From Chroococcidiopsis sp. CCMEE 29 (GTDB lineage: Bacteria > Cyanobacteriota > Cyanobacteriia > Cyanobacteriales > Chroococcidiopsidaceae): a DNA stretch of 24,000 nucleotides. Under the pieces are notes generated by a model that saw only the letters and a list, made by a program, of their open reading frames with translations, made no database searches and was not told the DNA's origin. The stretch spans positions 64,273 through 88,272 of the forward strand of contig NZ_CP083762.1 in the NCBI RefSeq assembly GCF_023558375.1, in the 5' to 3' direction. Position numbers and translations under genes: made by a program. Below are positions 4,709 through 24,000 of the stretch, in pieces (position 1 is the stretch's first letter; every line of letters begins with the position of its first letter).

Positions 4709-5668
4709 TTACGCATTGACAAAAGACTGATTATGTAAATTCACTTCAAGTTTCTGCTGGAGGTGTTCTAGAATGAATTCCCTTGCCACCTGTAGGTACA
4801 AATTCTTTTGTAATTCGTACCAGTTTTCAATTAGTTCTTCAGCTCGCATTAACTCTAACTTAGTAAAGGCTCGGATTGAACAAAAAATGTGAGTTTTAAT
4901 AGCCTCACTTGTTCTGACCATAAACCGCGAAACTCCACACAGTTGTTTCAAGGCTCGGTGATAGCATTCAATTCCCCAATGGATTGAGTGCGACTCATTG
5001 AATTCCTGTCGGCTAACTTGTTCGGTAGCATCTGAATTAGGTAGGTATGTAATGTAGTATCTCTCGGCTTCGTTTTTGAATATCCTCCGAAATACTTTGA
5101 CGCGCCCAAAGTTTTTCAGATGTATTACCAAACCTTGGTCAGGAATTTCCAAATTTTGTACCTGGGTGTAATTTTTACCATCAGTTGAGACTTTTCGATT
5201 TTTGGCAATACCCATGAGAAATCCTACTTCCCGGTTTTTCAAGAATTTCAGATTTTCAAGGGCTGAATACCAAGCATCACCAGTTACCGTTTCTGGCTGC
5301 AAGCCCCAAGCCAAAACCTCCGTAATCATTACTCGAAAGTAATCGTTTTTTGTCAAACCCTCCCGCTTATCGTAGATCCGATAATTAACTGGGATAGACT
5401 TAGCTGATGCGTCGGTGTAATACAGGGTAATGAGGTGAAGCCCTTTAACAATTCGATGATGTTTTCCTGACCAAAAGTATCCAATTAGTTCAGCTAAATT
5501 TGGCTCACTATAAGGTTTATCAATAACGGTATCGTCACAGCTTAAAGTGCCGCCCACCAATTGAATGTGTGGTTTTATCTCTTCAAACAAGTCTTTAGGT
5601 TGATATCTTTCCCTTAACAAGAAGCGATTGACGCTGTCGTGTGAGACGTGCTTAAGAATTTCTGACAA
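4709..5668 (-). CDS. DDE transposase, IS4/IS701-superfamily (family tentative)
   Basis: 319 aa in the ORF track from an internal TTG. The frame stays open to 5803 (adding ...STIREITKPSTAKCNLDTYTLFLLAEPKYAGCNRL) with no ATG/GTG/TTG in that stretch. DDE-like landmarks: CDDTVIDKPY, GDAWY, HWGIECYHRALKQ. The stop lies inside the IR. Confidence 0.75.
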   Translation of the reverse strand: MSEILKHVSHDSVNRFLLRERYQPKDLFEEIKPHIQLVGGTLSCDDTVIDKPYSEPNLAELIGYFWSGKHHRIVKGLHLITLYYTDASAKSIPVNYRIYDKREGLTKNDYFRVMITEVLAWGLQPETVTGDAWYSALENLKFLKNREVGFLMGIAKNRKVSTDGKNYTQVQNLEIPDQGLVIHLKNFGRVKVFRRIFKNEAERYYITYLPNSDATEQVSRQEFNESHSIHWGIECYHRALKQLCGVSRFMVRTSEAIKTHIFCSIRAFTKLELMRAEELIENWYELQKNLYLQVAREFILEHLQQKLEVNLHNQSFVNA

Positions 5669-14130: not shown

Positions 14131-14646
14131 ATGGAAACGAACCAAACCGAACACACCTCACACATGCCTGTTCAACCTCAAAAAGAACATCAGTGGCTCC
14201 AGAAACTTGTCGGTGAGTGGACCTATGAATCCGAAGCGCTGATGGGACCCGATCAACCTCCCGTCAAGTCAACGGGAACAGAAACAGTTCGCTCACTGGG
14301 TGGACTCTGGATATTGGCAGAAGGACAGGGTGAGATGCCGGGTTGTGGTCCTGCAACGACACTGATGACCCTCGGCTACGATCCTCAAAAACAGCGTTAT
14401 GTAGGCACCTGGGTCGGGTCAATGATGACGTACCTCTGGGTGTATGACGGTGAATTAGATGCAGGGGAAACTGTGCTAACGCTCAATTCCGATGGACCTG
14501 TCATGACGGGTGAGGAGAAACTAGGAAAGTACAAAGACGCGATCGAGTTCAAGAGCGACAATCATCGAATTTTGACCTCCCATATGTTGAGAGATGACGG
14601 GCAGTGGCAGCACTTCATGACCGCCCATTATTGGCGCAAGCAATAA
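14131..14646 (+). CDS. DUF1579 family protein
   Basis: 171 aa. LQKLVGEWTYE ... SLGGLWILAEGQGEMPG ... TLGYDPQKQRYVGTWVGSMMTYLW. Confidence 0.7.
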   Translation: METNQTEHTSHMPVQPQKEHQWLQKLVGEWTYESEALMGPDQPPVKSTGTETVRSLGGLWILAEGQGEMPGCGPATTLMTLGYDPQKQRYVGTWVGSMMTYLWVYDGELDAGETVLTLNSDGPVMTGEEKLGKYKDAIEFKSDNHRILTSHMLRDDGQWQHFMTAHYWRKQ

Positions 14647-14932
14647 ATGCTCCACGATTCTCTTGTAAGTTGCCATTTAATCTGGCTCCAGTCTCGCACG
14701 CGCATCCAGTCAGAACCAGGTTGTGTACCGATTGCCTGAAATCCGTAACGTTCTGCCAACCGGGATACTCTCAGGTTGGCACTTACAGAAATACCGATAA
14801 TCTCCTTCAGTCCCAAATCGCGGAACCCAAAATCAATCAGAGCTTTCCCGACTTCAATGGCATAGGCATAACGTCCCCAGTACTGTGGTGCTAGCTCAAT
14901 TCCAAGTTCTGCCTGCCCAGCAGCATAGCTGG
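14628..14932 (-). pseudogene. GNAT (RimJ/RimL-like) acetyltransferase, C-terminal ~100 codons only
   Basis: The frame is open up to the intron boundary: ..AELGIELAPQYWGRYAYAIEVGKALIDFGFRDLGLKEIIGISVSANLRVSRLAERYGFQAIG. The N-terminal ~70 codons are missing and were not found on the far side of the mobile block. Confidence 0.65.
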
Positions 14933-17418
14933 ATGCCTAAGCCAGGAAGTCACCCCCCTGACTCGGCTACAAAACCGTGCATGAAACGTTAATTTCACAC
15001 GGCTCCTCGATGATTTGGTGCTTGACAAGCACACCTCTAAATTCAGAGTTAAAAGGGATTACAGTTGAGATAATCCTCATCTATCTCTGGAACTGTAAGA
15101 GCAACTTTATCTGCTGCCGTTTTAGCATCGTGGCAATGTCCATGAAGTAATTGAAGATTGTCATAACTATCCTTACCGCCTTGAGAGCGGGGTATTTTAT
15201 GGTCGATTTCCATCAAGTCATCATGGTGAAAAAACAGTCCACAGTGAGTACACTTTCCTTTCTGCATCTTCAAGAGTGTTGCCATTCTTTTTGAAGCTTC
15301 AGGATGTTTACCCATTCTGGAACTCCAGTACACCCAATCACCATCAAACGGGCTACGACTTCCTTGCACTTGTATGTGTCTCACAATGCGAGTTTCACGG
15401 TGCTTGAGTAAGCGAATTTTCTGGTTATGGGGTTTAAATACCCAGTTATCAGACCCTACGGTTTGCCAATACTTTTGACAACTCCATCGGGAGGATTTAT
15501 TGGGGTGACGATGTTCTGCCCATGCTTTTAGCTGGCTGAATAATGTTGTATCCGCCTGGTTAAATATGCGTTTGCTGACGACGCCTGAGTAGTAGTTTGT
15601 CCATCCACGGATGACAGGATTTAGATGGGTGATTAAATCAGATTGTGGTACTGACTTATGCCCATCAATCAATTTACCTATCTTCTGCATATGTGCCTTC
15701 AGCTTTGTTTTGCTTGGGGTAATCAGAGTTTTGTAACCAAGTAATTTTCCGCTTGAGCTTTTACCACTGTGATATTTTCCTACAGGAAATTGTCGAACAG
15801 TGAAACCCAGAAAATCAAAACCAACTTTACCTTCATACATATTAAGTGTATGGGATATTCGGGTTTTACTTGGTTTGAATTCCAGCCCCAATTCGCTTAA
15901 CCATTCACTAATAATCTGCTGACATCTTTGGATAACGGCAAGGTCTTTATGCAGAATGACGAAATCATCTGCAAATCGAATTAAGCTTATTGCTGTATAG
16001 TTCGCCGCTAGAGAGCCAGGTAGACTTAAAGCAACTTGTTTAATTCTATTCTCCATGCCGTGGAGGGCTATATTCGCTAATAATGGCGAAATCGTACCCC
16101 CTTGTGGAACACCCATCGATGTTGTGTGGTCAGATTTCTCCCTCAAAGCATATTCGGAGAAATCAATCACTCCCGCTTTTAACCATGCACGAATTTGTCG
16201 GCGGATGGTGGGGAATGTATTTAATTTTGACAGCAGAACATTATGATGAATTTTGTCAAAACATTTTGCAATGTCGGCATCCAAAACATATTTAGGTTTG
16301 AGCTTAATAGTGTTGAATATTGCCTTCATTGCATCATGGGCATTTCTTCCTGGTCGGAAGCCGAAGGAGTTTGGCTCGAAACGAGCTTCCCATTCAGGTT
16401 CTAGGGCTAGTTTTACTAGCGATTGCAAGGCGCGGTCGTATAGAGTGGGTATAGAAAGGGGTCTTTTTTCTCCTGATGAACCGGGTTTTGGTATCCACAC
16501 CCTGCGAGTGGGGGCGGCTTTATGACCTAGTTTCAAGGATTGTACTAAGATGAGACGTGCTTTTGGGGACAAGTTTTTCTGCCCATCCACTCCTGCCGTC
16601 TTCTTACCTCGGTTTTCCTGTGTTACCCGACGAACCGCTAAACACTTTGCTGACCAGGAGCGTAACAACGTTTTTTGGAGTTGACGAACTGCTTTGACAT
16701 CACCACGCTGCGAGGCTTTGTAGATGCGCTTTTGCAACTTAAACACTTTCCGCTCTAGCTTTCGCCAGGGGATAGTCTTCCATTCCACCGTAGTCTTAAA
16801 ACTCGTTTTAGACATATAAATTGCTACTGGTACCTCTACAATCCAAGTCACCGTGCCTCCGTCTGCATATCCTCTGGCTTTCCCAAAGGCTTTGGCTTCT
16901 GAGGCAATCCTTCCCCTTGAAGGCTTGCGGCTGGCTACCTACTTAGGAAATCGACCATTTCCTGAGAGCGCATCAGGGGGTTACTTCGTTCCAATTCTTC
17001 GTTTGTCGCTGGTTTTAGGGTTCTCTCTCTTCACCGGGTTTATTGTGAGTGCATATTGGTCTGCCGCTTAATCAGCCAACCACTTATCCTTTCCCTTTTG
17101 GGACAAGCCTGACAGCCTTTTGGCTTGTTTTGCATTACGATGATTCAGTCAAGAGATTTGTATTCCTACCCATGACCAGCTATGCTAGGCGGGATTCCGC
17201 ATTAGGCTTGCAGTTACCGCCATGATTCCCCGCTTCATCCCATCAAAGAACCACTTGGCTGAAATGGGGGACTCGCTGTCACTCCTGCACTTGGAGGGAT
17301 GGAATTACACCATCACGAAAAATTGAGTTATCAAGGAACAGGAGAAGATTTCTCTCTTCTATCTTCCTTGTCTGTCATCCCCGAATATTTCTATTCGTTT
17401 CGACAGAACGAATCACAC
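14933..17418 (-). mobile_element. Group II intron, copy 1 (2486 nt)
   Basis: It starts GTGTG (17418 downward), has the RT/maturase/HNH ORF in domain IV, a canonical domain V and a domain VI with bulged A, and ends ..GGCAT at 14933 (+/-1-2 nt). Confidence 0.9.
15049..16851 (-). CDS. Group II intron reverse transcriptase/maturase with HNH endonuclease domain
   Basis: RT blocks (RRVWIPKPGSSGEKRPLSIPTLYDRALQ; FADDFVIL in place of YADD), X/maturase (RGWTNYY) and HNH (CTHCG...DHKIPRSQGG...HGHCH). The likely true start is ATG 16815 (MSKTSF..). The ORF-track start is a GTG. Confidence 0.9.
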   Translation of the reverse strand: MTWIVEVPVAIYMSKTSFKTTVEWKTIPWRKLERKVFKLQKRIYKASQRGDVKAVRQLQKTLLRSWSAKCLAVRRVTQENRGKKTAGVDGQKNLSPKARLILVQSLKLGHKAAPTRRVWIPKPGSSGEKRPLSIPTLYDRALQSLVKLALEPEWEARFEPNSFGFRPGRNAHDAMKAIFNTIKLKPKYVLDADIAKCFDKIHHNVLLSKLNTFPTIRRQIRAWLKAGVIDFSEYALREKSDHTTSMGVPQGGTISPLLANIALHGMENRIKQVALSLPGSLAANYTAISLIRFADDFVILHKDLAVIQRCQQIISEWLSELGLEFKPSKTRISHTLNMYEGKVGFDFLGFTVRQFPVGKYHSGKSSSGKLLGYKTLITPSKTKLKAHMQKIGKLIDGHKSVPQSDLITHLNPVIRGWTNYYSGVVSKRIFNQADTTLFSQLKAWAEHRHPNKSSRWSCQKYWQTVGSDNWVFKPHNQKIRLLKHRETRIVRHIQVQGSRSPFDGDWVYWSSRMGKHPEASKRMATLLKMQKGKCTHCGLFFHHDDLMEIDHKIPRSQGGKDSYDNLQLLHGHCHDAKTAADKVALTVPEIDEDYLNCNPF

Positions 17419-17648
17419 TAGCGACCTGCAATTATAAATGCTCAAACCTGCAAACAAGTCATTTTCAAACCAGCGTTTTCTTGACTTTCCTATTGGTAAG
17501 AGTTTCTGAACCCTAAACCGCCTACTCTCTAGTTAAAAAAGTCGGTAAAGAATTCAAAGTTAACTTATCAAATGCTGAGATGAGTTTTTTTGACAACCCC
17601 TGCAAGTCCTCACAGCCCAGTGCTAATAAGGCGTTTACTCTATTTGCA

Positions 17649-19500
17649 AATAATCCTGGGTCTTCCGCGATTTTGATGATGGAGAGGAATGTCACGGATG
17701 AGCGATCGCTCTTGATTGGAAACAGGATGAGGCGATCACCATTGGATGAACTGAAAACAGCAGAACAGAGAGTTCTAAACTGCCAATAAGAATCGTCGCT
17801 CAAGCAGCTCCATCCCAGCGCGACCATACATCTGCCGCTTCAACATCTTCAGTCGATTGATCTGCCCTTCGGTTTGACCGTTGCTCCAAGGAAGTGTTAC
17901 ACCTGCCTTAACAGCATCATAGTCCTCTTGCAGCCGTTTGGCAAAGCGGTTGAAAGGAGAAAGCTGGCTATGGAGCGCCTGTTCTAACCAAGGGTCGAGT
18001 TGCTCTGGCTGTCTGTCACGCACGAGAAAGGCAAAGCTTTGAGCGAGTTCAATCGCTTGGGTGAGGTCAGGATGCTGTGCCATGGCTTGTACGAGCTGTG
18101 CGTCATCTGGTTCCCAATTCTCCGGTCGTCGCGCTGCACATCTGGTAGTGCGGCGAGGTGTGAGCGCCAGTTTCTGGGGTTCACTCACCTTTGGCAGTTG
18201 CTTAATTGAACGCCGTCGTTTCCTGCGTTGCGTTCCTTGGGCTTGACGAAAGCGACGGGTATAGCGAGCTACTGTGTCATAGCTGCCAGAATAACCACGT
18301 TGTTGAATCTCCCCAAACAACCGCAAGGTATCATGACAACCATCGTTCCAACGTTCAAGAACATAGTCTTTGTAAGGGTCAACTAAGCGGCTCCGACCAC
18401 AGTCACGGCGTCCTTGGCGCTCCGGGAAGGTGGAACTGTGTAGGTAACGAAATACCGTCGTGCGACCAATCCCCACCTGACGAGCAATTGCTGGCACCAA
18501 CCAGCCTTGGTGGTGTAATTCCCAGACTCTCTTGTAATCTGCTTCTCGCCTCGACCGACGTTGTTCGGCAATGCTTTGCTCCTTGGGCAGCGGCTGCGGT
18601 GGCAACACTGGTACAACTGCGGTACTCTCAGGACTGATTACTGATGACAGGCTGTGTATTGCCCCAACTGTCTTAAGAGCTTGACTTTGTGCGCCAAACG
18701 CTTCAGCCAATGTTTCAGCCAGGTTTTGCAGCAGATGAAATCGGTCTGCTACTTGGATAGCCGTCGGTGCCCCTTGCCGAATGCCCCTTTCGTAAGCTTT
18801 GGAGCGATCTCGGGTGACGATTTCCACGCCTGGATGAACACAGAGCCAGTTGGCTAACGTCGATGCTTCCCGATCTGGCAGGAGCTCGATTGGTCGATGT
18901 TGTTCCAGGTTCACCAGAATTGTGCCGTAACGTCGCCCTTTCCGCCATGCCCAATCATCAACTCCAAGCACGCGGGGAGTCGCGTTGACAGCTAACCGAC
19001 TTTGATGAATGCGTCGCAATATCGTGTCCGGGCTGATAGGCATCCCTAGCCCCACCGCTAGCTTCACTCTAGCTTGACCACCTAGCATCATCCCAATCAG
19101 ATGCAGGGCATCATTGAATCGTACCGTTTGTCTACCATAAGCAGCGACGACGCGGGGCAGCCGTTCACAGAAAATTCGTCGTACACATGTCCGATTGACA
19201 CAGAAGAACCGACGGGTGAGTAGTTGTATTTGTACAGTAGCTCCTTGCCAAGGTAGATCTGTGAGTATGCGTTCGTAGCGACTATGTACCTGTGATGAAG
19301 GTTGGTGGCATTTGGGGCACAGAGCTACCGCTCTGATTGTCTTGACAACCAAGACCACTTGCGTGTCTTCTACAGAGAGGCTTTCTAGAGCGAGTACTTG
19401 AGGGTCAGCGAGGAGAGGGCTTTGATTCATATAACCCTCTTATTATAGCGAATTGCTACCTCATGCTTCATCAAAATTGCGGAAGACCCGTAATTACAGC
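17649..19500 (-). mobile_element. ISL3-family insertion sequence
   Basis: IRs GGGTCTTCCGCGATTTTGATGA (17658-17679) and TCATCAAAATTGCGGAAGACCC (19468-19489). Flanking direct repeat CTATTTGCA (17640-17648 and 19501-19509). Confidence 0.85.
17775..19430 (-). CDS. ISL3 family transposase
   Basis: 551 aa. N-terminal zinc finger CPKCHQPSSQVHSRYER, LPWQG motif, central DDWAWRKGRRYGT and a C-terminal SNGQTEGQINRLKMLKRQMYGRA signature. Confidence 0.9.
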   Translation of the reverse strand: MNQSPLLADPQVLALESLSVEDTQVVLVVKTIRAVALCPKCHQPSSQVHSRYERILTDLPWQGATVQIQLLTRRFFCVNRTCVRRIFCERLPRVVAAYGRQTVRFNDALHLIGMMLGGQARVKLAVGLGMPISPDTILRRIHQSRLAVNATPRVLGVDDWAWRKGRRYGTILVNLEQHRPIELLPDREASTLANWLCVHPGVEIVTRDRSKAYERGIRQGAPTAIQVADRFHLLQNLAETLAEAFGAQSQALKTVGAIHSLSSVISPESTAVVPVLPPQPLPKEQSIAEQRRSRREADYKRVWELHHQGWLVPAIARQVGIGRTTVFRYLHSSTFPERQGRRDCGRSRLVDPYKDYVLERWNDGCHDTLRLFGEIQQRGYSGSYDTVARYTRRFRQAQGTQRRKRRRSIKQLPKVSEPQKLALTPRRTTRCAARRPENWEPDDAQLVQAMAQHPDLTQAIELAQSFAFLVRDRQPEQLDPWLEQALHSQLSPFNRFAKRLQEDYDAVKAGVTLPWSNGQTEGQINRLKMLKRQMYGRAGMELLERRFLLAV

Positions 19501-19568
19501 CTATTTGCACTTAATGTGGTTTTGAAACCTTGTTTGCAGTTTGAGGCTCTGCTGTTTGCAGGTCGCTA

Positions 19569-22054
19569 GTGTGATTCGTTCTGTCGAAACGAATAGAAAT
19601 ATTCGGGGATGACAGACAAGGAAGATAGAAGAGAGAAATCTTCTCCTGTTCCTTGATAACTCAATTTTTCGTGATGGTGTAATTCCATCCCTCCAAGTGC
19701 AGGAGTGACAGCGAGTCCCCCATTTCAGCCAAGTGGTTCTTTGATGGGATGAAGCGGGGAATCATGGCGGTAACTGCAAGCCTAATGCGGAATCCCGCCT
19801 AGCATAGCTGGTCATGGGTAGGAATACAAATCTCTTGACTGAATCATCGTAATGCAAAACAAGCCAAAAGGCTGTCAGGCTTGTCCCAAAAGGGAAAGGA
19901 TAAGTGGTTGGCTGATTAAGCGGCAGACCAATATGCACTCACAATAAACCCGGTGAAGAGAGAGAACCCTAAAACCAGCGACAAACGAAGAATTGGAACG
20001 AAGTAACCCCCTGATGCGCTCTCAGGAAATGGTCGATTTCCTAAGTAGGTAGCCAGCCGCAAGCCTTCAAGGGGAAGGATTGCCTCAGAAGCCAAAGCCT
20101 TTGGGAAAGCCAGAGGATATGCAGACGGAGGCACGGTGACTTGGATTGTAGAGGTACCAGTAGCAATTTATATGTCTAAAACGAGTTTTAAGACTACGGT
20201 GGAATGGAAGACTATCCCCTGGCGAAAGCTAGAGCGGAAAGTGTTTAAGTTGCAAAAGCGCATCTACAAAGCCTCGCAGCGTGGTGATGTCAAAGCAGTT
20301 CGTCAACTCCAAAAAACGTTGTTACGCTCCTGGTCAGCAAAGTGTTTAGCGGTTCGTCGGGTAACACAGGAAAACCGAGGTAAGAAGACGGCAGGAGTGG
20401 ATGGGCAGAAAAACTTGTCCCCAAAAGCACGTCTCATCTTAGTACAATCCTTGAAACTAGGTCATAAAGCCGCCCCCACTCGCAGGGTGTGGATACCAAA
20501 ACCCGGTTCATCAGGAGAAAAAAGACCCCTTTCTATACCCACTCTATACGACCGCGCCTTGCAATCGCTAGTAAAACTAGCCCTAGAACCTGAATGGGAA
20601 GCTCGTTTCGAGCCAAACTCCTTCGGCTTCCGACCAGGAAGAAATGCCCATGATGCAATGAAGGCAATATTCAACACTATTAAGCTCAAACCTAAATATG
20701 TTTTGGATGCCGACATTGCAAAATGTTTTGACAAAATTCATCATAATGTTCTGCTGTCAAAATTAAATACATTCCCCACCATCCGCCGACAAATTCGTGC
20801 ATGGTTAAAAGCGGGAGTGATTGATTTCTCCGAATATGCTTTGAGGGAGAAATCTGACCACACAACATCGATGGGTGTTCCACAAGGGGGTACGATTTCG
20901 CCATTATTAGCGAATATAGCCCTCCACGGCATGGAGAATAGAATTAAACAAGTTGCTTTAAGTCTACCTGGCTCTCTAGCGGCGAACTATACAGCAATAA
21001 GCTTAATTCGATTTGCAGATGATTTCGTCATTCTGCATAAAGACCTTGCCGTTATCCAAAGATGTCAGCAGATTATTAGTGAATGGTTAAGCGAATTGGG
21101 GCTGGAATTCAAACCAAGTAAAACCCGAATATCCCATACACTTAATATGTATGAAGGTAAAGTTGGTTTTGATTTTCTGGGTTTCACTGTTCGACAATTT
21201 CCTGTAGGAAAATATCACAGTGGTAAAAGCTCAAGCGGAAAATTACTTGGTTACAAAACTCTGATTACCCCAAGCAAAACAAAGCTGAAGGCACATATGC
21301 AGAAGATAGGTAAATTGATTGATGGGCATAAGTCAGTACCACAATCTGATTTAATCACCCATCTAAATCCTGTCATCCGTGGATGGACAAACTACTACTC
21401 AGGCGTCGTCAGCAAACGCATATTTAACCAGGCGGATACAACATTATTCAGCCAGCTAAAAGCATGGGCAGAACATCGTCACCCCAATAAATCCTCCCGA
21501 TGGAGTTGTCAAAAGTATTGGCAAACCGTAGGGTCTGATAACTGGGTATTTAAACCCCATAACCAGAAAATTCGCTTACTCAAGCACCGTGAAACTCGCA
21601 TTGTGAGACACATACAAGTGCAAGGAAGTCGTAGCCCGTTTGATGGTGATTGGGTGTACTGGAGTTCCAGAATGGGTAAACATCCTGAAGCTTCAAAAAG
21701 AATGGCAACACTCTTGAAGATGCAGAAAGGAAAGTGTACTCACTGTGGACTGTTTTTTCACCATGATGACTTGATGGAAATCGACCATAAAATACCCCGC
21801 TCTCAAGGCGGTAAGGATAGTTATGACAATCTTCAATTACTTCATGGACATTGCCACGATGCTAAAACGGCAGCAGATAAAGTTGCTCTTACAGTTCCAG
21901 AGATAGATGAGGATTATCTCAACTGTAATCCCTTTTAACTCTGAATTTAGAGGTGTGCTTGTCAAGCACCAAATCATCGAGGAGCCGTGTGAAATTAACG
22001 TTTCATGCACGGTTTTGTAGCCGAGTCAGGGGGGTGACTTCCTGGCTTAGGCAT
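19569..22054 (+). mobile_element. Group II intron, copy 2 (2486 nt)
   Basis: GTGTG at 19569. Domain V GAGCCGTGTGAAATTAACGTTTCATGCACGGTTT at 21982-22015. Domain VI GCCGAGTCAGG...CCTGGCTTAGGC with bulged A. Ends GGCAT at 22054. By-eye comparison with copy 1 found no differences. Confidence 0.9.
20136..21938 (+). CDS. Group II intron reverse transcriptase/maturase with HNH endonuclease domain
   Basis: 600-aa translation identical to the copy at 15049-16851. The probable ATG start is at 20172. Confidence 0.9.
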   Translation: MTWIVEVPVAIYMSKTSFKTTVEWKTIPWRKLERKVFKLQKRIYKASQRGDVKAVRQLQKTLLRSWSAKCLAVRRVTQENRGKKTAGVDGQKNLSPKARLILVQSLKLGHKAAPTRRVWIPKPGSSGEKRPLSIPTLYDRALQSLVKLALEPEWEARFEPNSFGFRPGRNAHDAMKAIFNTIKLKPKYVLDADIAKCFDKIHHNVLLSKLNTFPTIRRQIRAWLKAGVIDFSEYALREKSDHTTSMGVPQGGTISPLLANIALHGMENRIKQVALSLPGSLAANYTAISLIRFADDFVILHKDLAVIQRCQQIISEWLSELGLEFKPSKTRISHTLNMYEGKVGFDFLGFTVRQFPVGKYHSGKSSSGKLLGYKTLITPSKTKLKAHMQKIGKLIDGHKSVPQSDLITHLNPVIRGWTNYYSGVVSKRIFNQADTTLFSQLKAWAEHRHPNKSSRWSCQKYWQTVGSDNWVFKPHNQKIRLLKHRETRIVRHIQVQGSRSPFDGDWVYWSSRMGKHPEASKRMATLLKMQKGKCTHCGLFFHHDDLMEIDHKIPRSQGGKDSYDNLQLLHGHCHDAKTAADKVALTVPEIDEDYLNCNPF

Positions 22055-22278
22055 CCACTTGACAAAGAAAAATAATTTGATTGCTTATAAATAAGGTTAG
22101 GGCGTGTCTGCGAACTAAGTATCCTAGTAAAGGAGTGTTAGGAGAAACGGATTGAGACTAAGATAGAAGTAATTAGTGCTCACACGTTTTTACTATCGAA
22201 AGTAGGTGAAGTGCTGACTACCAGGAAGAGTGAATTGGAAGTGATAACTTCACTGCTGTACAAAAGCCAACCCTTTGC

Positions 22279-23651: not shown

Positions 23652-23697
23652 CGCCGAATTCTCCTTTACAGTTAGTTTGCAATACTGTTTATAGCTG

Positions 23698-24000
23698 TAG
23701 CGACCTGTAATTATAAATGCTCAAACCTGCAAACAAGTCATTTTCAAACCAGCGTTTTCTTGACTTTCCTATTGGTAAGAGTTTCTGAGAGGATGTTTGG
23801 AAAGTATAAGCTGCTACGCTAACCGCCTGACCATCAGCCGAACCATGGCAGCATAAATAAAAGCTTCTGAGCTGGTAGGTAAGACTTCATAGTCAATGGT
23901 TAATCGCCTGTAACGCACAAGCCATGCCAGAGTGCGCTCAACTATCCACCGCCAAGGCAACACTTGAAAGCCTTTGTTCTGCTTGCGCTTGACCACTTCC
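23698..24000 (-). mobile_element. IS5-family insertion sequence, 3' end (continues beyond the window)
   Basis: The terminal 91 nt are identical (one change) to the MITE end at 17419-17509. It contains the transposase C-terminus. Confidence 0.7.
23814..24000 (-). CDS. IS5-family (IS427/IS1031-like) DDE transposase, C-terminal part, 5'-partial at window edge
   Basis: [48 protein letters not shown] is the conserved C-terminal block of this family. The frame is open to nt 24000. Confidence 0.75.

Follow-up and report, generated by a model that had tools for sequence, protein, structure and literature searches.

The window analysed here, a stretch of 24,000 nt from Chroococcidiopsis sp. CCMEE 029 (contig NZ_CP083762.1, positions 64,273 to 88,272) which is most likely part of the 673-kb plasmid of this strain, contains two identical group II introns in inverted orientation on either side of an ISL3-family insertion sequence (IS). 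Very probably, the pair consists of one tip-homing group II intron occupying both of the transposon tips that flank the ISL3 element, these tips being ends of a single family of terminal inverted repeats (TIRs). The insertion point lies 2–3 nt inside the tip of this TIR family and is common to more than 20 related copies of the intron. Since the target is located in an inverted terminal repeat, the left and right tips offer the site in opposite orientations, and the occupation of both leaves introns which point outward and are mutually inverted, so that a nested palindrome arises without any special event. The introns and the severed transposon ends outside them are positioned as follows.

14932 to 17418, minus strand: group II intron copy 1, 2487 nt, with 5' GTGTG at 17418 and 3' ...GGCATC ending at 14932
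19569 to 22055, plus strand: group II intron copy 2, 2487 nt
14930 to 14931, minus strand: last two bases of the transposon end, CA (TG on the plus strand), severed from its repeat by copy 1
22056 to 22057, plus strand: last two bases, CA, of the transposon end beyond copy 2, assigned on the same basis as 14930 to 14931

An earlier, sequence-only reading of the window had described two inverted copies of 2486 nt each without any difference between them, and full pairwise comparison of these intervals (14933–17418 on the minus strand and 19569–22054 on the plus strand) bears this out, with 0 mismatches. Its statement that the 5' ends face each other across a 2150-bp spacer is right for the intron coordinates which it used. 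The perfect complementarity continues for 13 nt into the 5' flanks and for 3 nt into the 3' flanks, giving perfect inverted arms at 14930–17431 and 19556–22057 (2502 nt each) with a spacer of 2124 nt between them. The arm length of 2529 nt at 100% reported by the repeat finder is a rounded value, as the inner flanks diverge past 13 nt.

The identity of the copies stands, while the 3' boundary assigned in that reading has to be moved one base further out. All 7 empty tips, which are found at the window's third tip, in L002–L008, in L017, L021 and L096 (one each) and in L023 (two), read ...GCTA/CA..., where the slash marks the junction and L numbers designate sequences compared with the window, while all 15 occupied tips read ...GCTA/GTGTG...GGCATC/CA.... 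Comparison of the empty with the occupied sites thus defines the inserted unit as GTGTG...GGCATC, 2487 nt in length, and rules out a 2486-nt intron ending in ...CAT. As every empty tip continues with CA, the perfect arms outlast the intron by this dinucleotide: the transposon's terminal CA supplies the two additional bases that are complementary beyond each intron. For the genome annotation, the intron ends belong at 14932 and 22055. The idea that only rare TA/CCA variants serve as the target was discarded, as the window's own left junction reads TA/CA in L002.

Both copies are intact mobile group II introns, with the following internal features.

14968 to 15008, minus strand: domain V of copy 1 (RF04357, 50.4 bits, E = 2e-9; RF00029, 40 bits at 14923–15007)
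21979 to 22019, plus strand: domain V of copy 2 (RF04357, 50.4 bits, E = 2e-9)
15049 to 16851, minus strand: intron-encoded protein of copy 1, 600 aa from GTG, with the probable start at M13 (position 16815)
20136 to 21938, plus strand: intron-encoded protein of copy 2
19774 to 19779, plus strand: predicted exon-binding site 2 (EBS2), intron nt 206–211, CUGCAA
19916 to 19924, plus strand: predicted exon-binding site 1 (EBS1), intron nt 348–356, UUAAGCGGC

The 5' consensus GUGYG is present as GTGTG at 19569–19573 on the plus strand and at 17418–17414 on the minus strand, and none of the 15 relatives of the panel described below departs from it. Domain V has its best match in the plastid ndhA/ndhB D5 model (RF04357). 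The RF00029 scores of the two copies are 40.0 and 39.7 bits, and the default Rfam run listed one copy only because 39.7 bits falls below the RF00029 gathering score of 40. The last 77 nt (21979–22055) fold into domain V and a domain VI with a single bulged A (-35.9 kcal/mol, z = -5.4). This branch-point A, located at 22049, is the sixth nucleotide from the 3' end if the intron ends at 22054 and the seventh if it ends at 22055, so that the 3' end at 22055 yields the usual geometry. The reading frame of the intron-encoded protein is intact in both copies (600 aa) and possesses the reverse transcriptase (RT) active-site motif FADD at residue 293, together with the Pfam domains RVT_N (4e-35), RVT_1 (4e-44), GIIM (1e-24) and HNH (6e-15), all of which score above the cut-offs. 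The nearest solved structure is the T.el4h RT of Thermosynechococcus (6ME0, E = 4e-102). As judged from the protein and domain V matches, the introns probably belong to the chloroplast-like (CL/IIB-type) class.

The site of insertion is shared by the whole intron lineage so far recovered. A protein-guided scan of one genome per species identifies 10 loci with full-length relatives of 84–93% DNA identity, hosted by Nodularia, Nostoc, Calothrix, Chlorogloeopsis and Brasilonema and by metagenome-assembled genomes (MAGs) labelled Limnothrix, Richelia or unclassified cyanobacteria, and additionally one split and one partial copy. Two further copies reside on the plasmids of Nostoc PCC 7120 (pCC7120delta, L096, 91.6% identity) and Nostoc C057 (L097, 90.8%). 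Among GTDB representatives and PLSDB, the best relatives are 93% identical in DNA and 95% in protein. The panel assembled for comparison comprises 15 relatives, full or partial, from about 10 cyanobacterial genera (those named being L014–L024, L056, L096 and L097), and all 15 occupy the same site, ...TTGCAGG(T)TCGCTA/GTGTG...GGCATC/CA-N-YTA, with unrelated flanks further out. A DNA-pattern scan of metagenome and MAG contigs adds 7 further tips that are occupied in this way, of which at least one probably duplicates a genome locus. The literature searched yields no account of an intron specificity for the tip of a TIR; the rule appears to be new, while lying inside the known behaviour of group II retroelements. 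It is also simple and testable, stating that an intron lineage of about 10 cyanobacterial genera homes to the outermost bases of the inverted repeat of one transposon family, and it accounts for inverted intron pairs without special pleading.

Two further observations concern the same intron lineage. Isolated 3'-terminal fragments of the intron, 55–303 nt in length and 92–98% identical, are present on plasmids of Fischerella, Planktothrix and Nostoc, as expected of 5'-truncated copies left by incomplete reverse transcription. In Calothrix sp. NIES-4101 plasmid4 (L023, 2412–7415), an intron relative is split between nt 1071 and 1072 by an insert of 2.5 kb, which carries a second intron about 65% related to the split one and thus forms a twintron.

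Recognition of this target can be predicted from base complementarity. EBS2 (CUGCAA) pairs at 6/6 positions with the 5' exon from -13 to -8, and EBS1, (U)AAGCGGC, pairs at 6 positions from -7 to -2. When the EBS1 and EBS2 pairings with their intron-binding sites (IBS1 and IBS2) are applied to 15 sequences, standard pairs occupy 90% of the cells, compared with 26–42% when the partner is slid by 1–3 columns. A first EBS1 candidate, AGCGAC at intron nt 409–414, left -1 unpaired and did not track the exon changes among relatives, and was replaced by nt 348–356. The ligated exon junctions are predicted to read ...TTGCAGGTCGCTA/CAGCTATGC... and ...TTGCAGGTCGCTA/CACTTGAC.... Both of the empty tips closest to the window's introns carry mismatches to these sites: the third tip of the window (23698) carries A in place of G at -11 of the prospective 5' exon, an EBS2 mismatch, and the tip in L002 has T for G at -7.

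In the proposed mechanism, which is modelled on what is known of other IIB introns, the intron RNA–protein particle would pair EBS2 and EBS1 with the repeat read outward (TTGCAG and GTCGCTA, respectively), and reverse splicing would then occur between ...GCTA and CA, 2–3 nt from the end of the element, after which the HNH domain would nick the other strand and the RT would copy the intron. Occupation of both the type-A tip and the type-B tip round ISL3 would leave two identical 2487-nt copies with a spacer of about 2.1 kb. The identity of the copies, their intact anatomy, the common site, the empty sites and the support of the junctions in the read graph are consistent with this origin of the copies by retrohoming.

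Several points weigh against this explanation. The EBS/IBS covariation is weak, being no higher than in the shuffle control, and the changes are mostly one-sided G-U; in addition, the window's EBS1 contains an extra A, so that -1 pairs only through a bulge of one A, and isolated folds of the EBS1 and EBS2 regions are uninformative. The EBS/IBS assignment thus rests on complementarity and not on covariation. The second tip, a good target, is yet empty in four complete elements (L017, L021, L023 and L096), which indicates that an intron in one tip does not entail one in the other, and neither the panel of relatives, the plasmids nor the metagenome and MAG scan yielded another element with both tips occupied. 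The spacer contains no outward promoter above chance (1 site against 1.9 expected). Finally, the two tips differ in subfamily and have no target duplication, and they may never have belonged to one element, having been joined by a rearrangement after each was invaded. This last point concerns the core of the spacer and its surroundings, the features of which are given below.

17419 to 17657, plus strand: type-A end of the TIR element with the conserved core and the first right-hand subterminal repeat TTGCAAATAATCCT, the tip reading TAGCGACCTGCAATTATAAATG...
17658 to 19489, minus strand: ISL3-family IS, 1832 bp, with 22-nt inverted repeats GGGTCTTCCGC(G/A)ATTTTGATGA (21/22 match)
17775 to 19430, minus strand: ISL3 transposase (DDE_Tnp_ISL3, 5e-31, and Zn_ribbon_ISL3)
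19490 to 19568, plus strand: type-B end of the TIR element, reading inward from the tip TAGCGACCTGCAAACAGCAGAG...AAACCACATTAAGTGCAAATAGG
14631 to 14929, minus strand: N-terminally truncated GNAT acetyltransferase gene outside the 3' end of copy 1 (Acetyltransf_3 profile positions 79–138 of 138)
23696 to 23788, plus strand: third type-A tip, unoccupied, TG followed by TAGCGACCTGTAATT..., cut at 23789 by an IS5-family element
23817 to 23999, minus strand: IS5-family transposase fragment (C-terminus; DDE_Tnp_1_2)

An ISL3 element embedded in sequence resembling a MITE (miniature inverted-repeat transposable element) had already been noted between the introns, and the Pfam match of the transposase is in agreement with this. 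The remaining description, an IS of 1852 bp flanked by a duplication of CTATTTGCA and splitting a single MITE of 289 bp, is unlikely to hold in either part. The IS is placed at 17658–19489 by its canonical terminal inverted repeats of the GGnTCTT type, located at 17658 and 19489, and by a copy in L002, 90% identical, whose alignment begins exactly at 17658 with a different upstream flank. The 9-nt CTATTTGCA occurs at 17640–17648 and 19501–19509, which is 9–11 nt outside the ISL3 inverted repeats, and is a portion of the MITE subterminal repeats, retained in IS-free copies as GCTTATTTGCAAATAATCCTGG (L023) and GCCTATTTGCAGCTAATCTGG (L021). Its interpretation as a target duplication, with IS ends at 17649 and 19500, was accordingly rejected or downgraded, the motif being present in IS-free MITEs of other genomes. 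An 8-bp target-site duplication of ISL3 is likewise lacking, as the immediate flanks ATAATCCT and GTAATTAC match at only 5/8 positions. The ISL3 element appears to be single-copy, as the contig L094 passes straight through it unbroken.

That one MITE was split by one ISL3 is therefore unlikely, the two halves being of types A and B and having no target duplication. The end at 17419–17657 is nearest to ends in L023, L017 and L096, and its core matches the MITEs of L023 and L096, while the end at 19490–19568 is nearest to those in L024, L002, L023_9195 and L021. From these similarities, the core is probably an ISL3 element between parts of two different MITE copies, brought together through an IS-mediated rearrangement. 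A MITE target-site duplication is also missing from the window, where ATA on the left faces TTG on the right with no YTA duplication round the composite, and the GNAT gene is a C-terminal stump without a partner half on the right of the composite.

These features bear on an alternative in which the introns entered the tips of different MITEs, one of type A and one of type B, and the tips were joined by some subsequent rearrangement, for instance recombination between two ISL3 elements, the identity of the copies then being kept or restored by gene conversion. This history is possible but improbable as a full account of the pair. It draws on the pairing of an A end with a B end, where complete elements elsewhere pair A with A or B with B, on the differing 8-bp flanks of the IS, on the absence of both a YTA duplication round the composite and the N-terminal half of the GNAT gene, and on the presence in related runs of a different ISL3 at nearly the same place in a type-B end. 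However, it needs more steps than the invasion of both tips in place, and 0 divergence over 2487 nt together with an empty junction in related DNA indicates a very recent arrival, which leaves little time for later rearrangement.

The preference of ISL3 elements for this location is a separate observation. In five independent contexts, comprising both end types (L002 5392–5401; L056 at about 2720; L103; L017 5371 and 913; L097 at about 3939), ISL3 inverted repeats (GGGTCTTG... and GGCTCTTGG...) adjoin the first subterminal repeat at a distance of exactly 61 nt from the tip. The transposases at that repeat form a clade of 551–567 aa whose DDE domain contains an HTH_7-like insert, and this clade seems, as far as these contexts indicate, to target the first subterminal repeat, about AGGATTAT / CACATTAA.

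The TIR family invaded by the introns has the tip TGTAGCGA(C/A)CTGCAA..., followed by arrays of subterminal repeats of about 20 bp. Complete non-coding copies of 514–626 bp are found in L021, L023 and L096, and non-coding MITE-like copies are common on Nostocales plasmids. In the window, the tips at 17419 and 19568 both carry the TAGCGACCTGCAA... repeat and a third tip lies at 23698; over 91 nt, 17419–17509 and 23698–23788 are 99% identical. Complete copies elsewhere have matching YTA triplets on both sides (CTA, TTA and CTA). In L096 (3486–4000), L023 (1898–2411) and L021 (3599–4224), the triplet is present on both sides in offset positions, as YTA-NN-TG... on the left and ...CA-N-YTA on the right, and neither the 5-bp duplication of Tn5053/Tn7 nor the TA of IS630, both considered as the duplication type of this element, fits the offset cleanly.

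The family has matches in 166 plasmid records, many of which are from Pseudomonas at 60–80% identity, and the occurrence of one TIR family in different phyla is notable. The terminal repeat TGTAGCGNCCTGCAAT... with subterminal repeats of the CCGGGATTAATTGCG type is present on 109 Pseudomonas plasmids, for example P. syringae pDC3000B (L098, 3001–3611) and P. aeruginosa pBJ86 (L099, 7001–10364). On pBJ86, the repeat adjoins a tni/Tn5053-like module, made up of genes for an AAA_22 ATPase, an rve-like DDE protein and a serine resolvase. Autonomous relatives with a tni-like gene module are thus likely to reside on Pseudomonas plasmids, and the cyanobacterial MITEs probably derive from tni-like transposons, the tni link resting on one annotated Pseudomonas plasmid.

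The introns at this locus appear to have arrived recently. The junction at the GNAT gene is intron-free in L002–L008, which come from other runs and whose flank is 99.5% identical over 5.3 kb; the empty junction reads ...GCATAGCTG/TAGCGA..., without the intron and with one G fewer, and the stump abuts the transposon tip. Zero divergence between the copies, this empty junction in 99.5%-identical DNA and the lack of any database relative above 93% identity all point to a recent insertion. Of the two explanations offered for the identity in the sequence-only reading, very recent retrohoming or ongoing gene conversion, the first is favoured by the empty junction.

The second, in which the copies are old and are kept identical by continuing gene conversion between the inverted arms, has little chance of being correct. 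Long inverted repeats on one replicon do convert readily, and at -7 the type-B tip has the base typical of type A, within a 13-nt identity which may mark where a conversion tract ended. No other type-B tip of the panel has the C in TAGCGA[C]C that is seen at the window's right end, and it is this C that extends the match with the type-A tip to exactly 13 nt; co-conversion during homing, gene conversion between the arms at a later time or a variant already present beforehand could each explain the identity. Against old copies stand the intron-free GNAT junction in 99.5%-identical DNA, seen in at least 7 contigs from different runs, and the nearest database relatives, which are at most 93% identical and suggest a recent acquisition.

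A false inverted join of a single copy, or of two unlinked copies, during assembly is very improbable: although inverted repeats that are perfect over 2.5 kb are well known to cause misjoins and the orientation of the spacer is beyond the reach of short reads, all four junction types are recovered in independent contigs, and the deposited assembly was built with Nanopore reads and Unicycler (PMC9120168). The genome of CCMEE 029, comprising a 5.7-Mb chromosome and a circular 673-kb plasmid, was assembled by Unicycler from Illumina and Nanopore data (SRR15174960-67; PMC9120168), and the junction support described here comes from Logan short-read contigs of individual runs of the same project. 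The contig L001 consists exactly of TTGCAGGTCGCTA, the intron and CCA, that is, the 13 shared nt, the intron and CCA, and halts exactly at -14, where the 5' flanks diverge. As it equals the sequence common to both copies, at least two flank types must exist at each intron end. L010 contains the junction of the GNAT gene with the intron 3' end, L011 and L012 contain the junction of the right flank with the intron 3' end, and L094 and L095 extend from a point 11 nt within copy 2, counted from its 5' end, across the type-B end and the whole ISL3 to 17480, which includes the continuity of ISL3 into the type-A part. The contigs show all junctions and thus make an assembly artefact unlikely; the earlier concern about assembly errors is largely removed, and for the purposes of genome curation the locus is real.

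Inversion of the spacer between the arms, also raised in the sequence-only reading, is plausible, though rather less than an even prospect, and the comparative support for it is suggestive. In the window, the GNAT stump adjoins the intron and then the type-A tip, while in L002–L008 it adjoins a type-B tip akin to the window's right end, both of which carry an otherwise unique ACAGCAGAGCC. Recombination between the 2.5-kb arms would yield exactly this difference in the end next to the GNAT stump, and may account for the discordant orientation. The two B-ends (window and L002) differ in a 6–9-nt segment, and the end in L002 holds a different ISL3 in the other orientation, so that orthology is unproven and other rearrangements are possible. 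For the right flank, there is no record of the 89-aa open reading frame, and the nucleoside hydrolase lacks a close homologue outside CCMEE 029, its next best match being 83%. The genome paper reported no inversion among replicate cultures, in an analysis that did not look at this locus specifically (PMC9120168).

A bolder version is doubtful, in which the intron lineage is an obligate hitch-hiker on tni-type tips and double invasion makes an invertible cassette, bounded by perfect inverted repeats of 2.5 kb, that flips in the population, while the severing of the terminal CA from the transposase-binding repeats would immobilise the host element; if it were true, the discordant end orientation in related DNA would be the trace of a flip. 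Under the tip-homing rule, occupied ends are expected to be deprived of their terminal CA and may have become unable to transpose, and long perfect inverted repeats can invert or destabilise plasmid segments. In other respects, the locus is a commonplace case of mobile elements nesting within each other.

Upstream of the composite, the window contains a conserved block (9902–14646) which encodes an ECF-type sigma factor with DUF6596, followed by YCII, glyoxalase-like, DUF899 and DUF1579 genes, and which is 99.5% identical in many unrelated runs (SRR22348xxx and SRR31616xxx). Further transposase genes are located at 4709–5668 (minus strand; DDE_Tnp_1) and 7649–8719 (minus strand; IS110 family, DEDD_Tnp_IS110 and Transposase_20), which makes this plasmid region dense in insertion sequences.

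Group II introns hosted by other mobile elements are a familiar phenomenon. RmInt1 of Sinorhizobium meliloti, for example, has its homing site in the insertion sequence ISRm2011-2 (PMC1802570, PMC5894124). Like the intron of the window, this bacterial group II intron finds its natural target inside another mobile element, spreads with its host element and acts as a retroelement and not as the intron of a gene, but it belongs to another intron class, lacks a D/En domain and depends on replication forks, whereas the protein of the window's intron has an HNH domain. The target of RmInt1 lies within the body of the IS, in the transposase gene. The target of the window's intron is instead the extreme tip of a terminal inverted repeat, which, unlike the situation in RmInt1, gives rise to inverted pairs and to a terminal CA cut off from its repeat.

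Ectopic recombination between inverted repeats of mobile elements is exemplified by IS inversions between TIRs (PMC3004938). The present locus is comparable in that identical inverted sequences round a segment form a substrate for inversion, but its arms are 2.5-kb introns and not short TIRs, and the inversion is deduced from the discordant orientation of the ends. The T.el4h family of Thermosynechococcus elongatus (PMC2882425; PDB 6ME0) consists of cyanobacterial chloroplast-like IIB introns, the class to which the window's intron probably belongs, and like the latter they multiply within a genome; its likeness to the window's intron is at the family level only (protein E = 4e-102), and its target specificity is different. 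The closest parallel in position is the ltrA intron of Nostoc sp. PCC 7120 pCC7120delta (NC_003273.1, 45422–47908), under which name the intron family is already annotated. Across all 2487 nt it shares 91.6% identity with the window's intron, and it sits at the same position in the right tip of a MITE (515 bp) belonging to this TIR family, but this MITE differs from the composite of the window in having no ISL3 and in having one tip occupied and the other (TTGCAGGTCGTTA/CA) empty.

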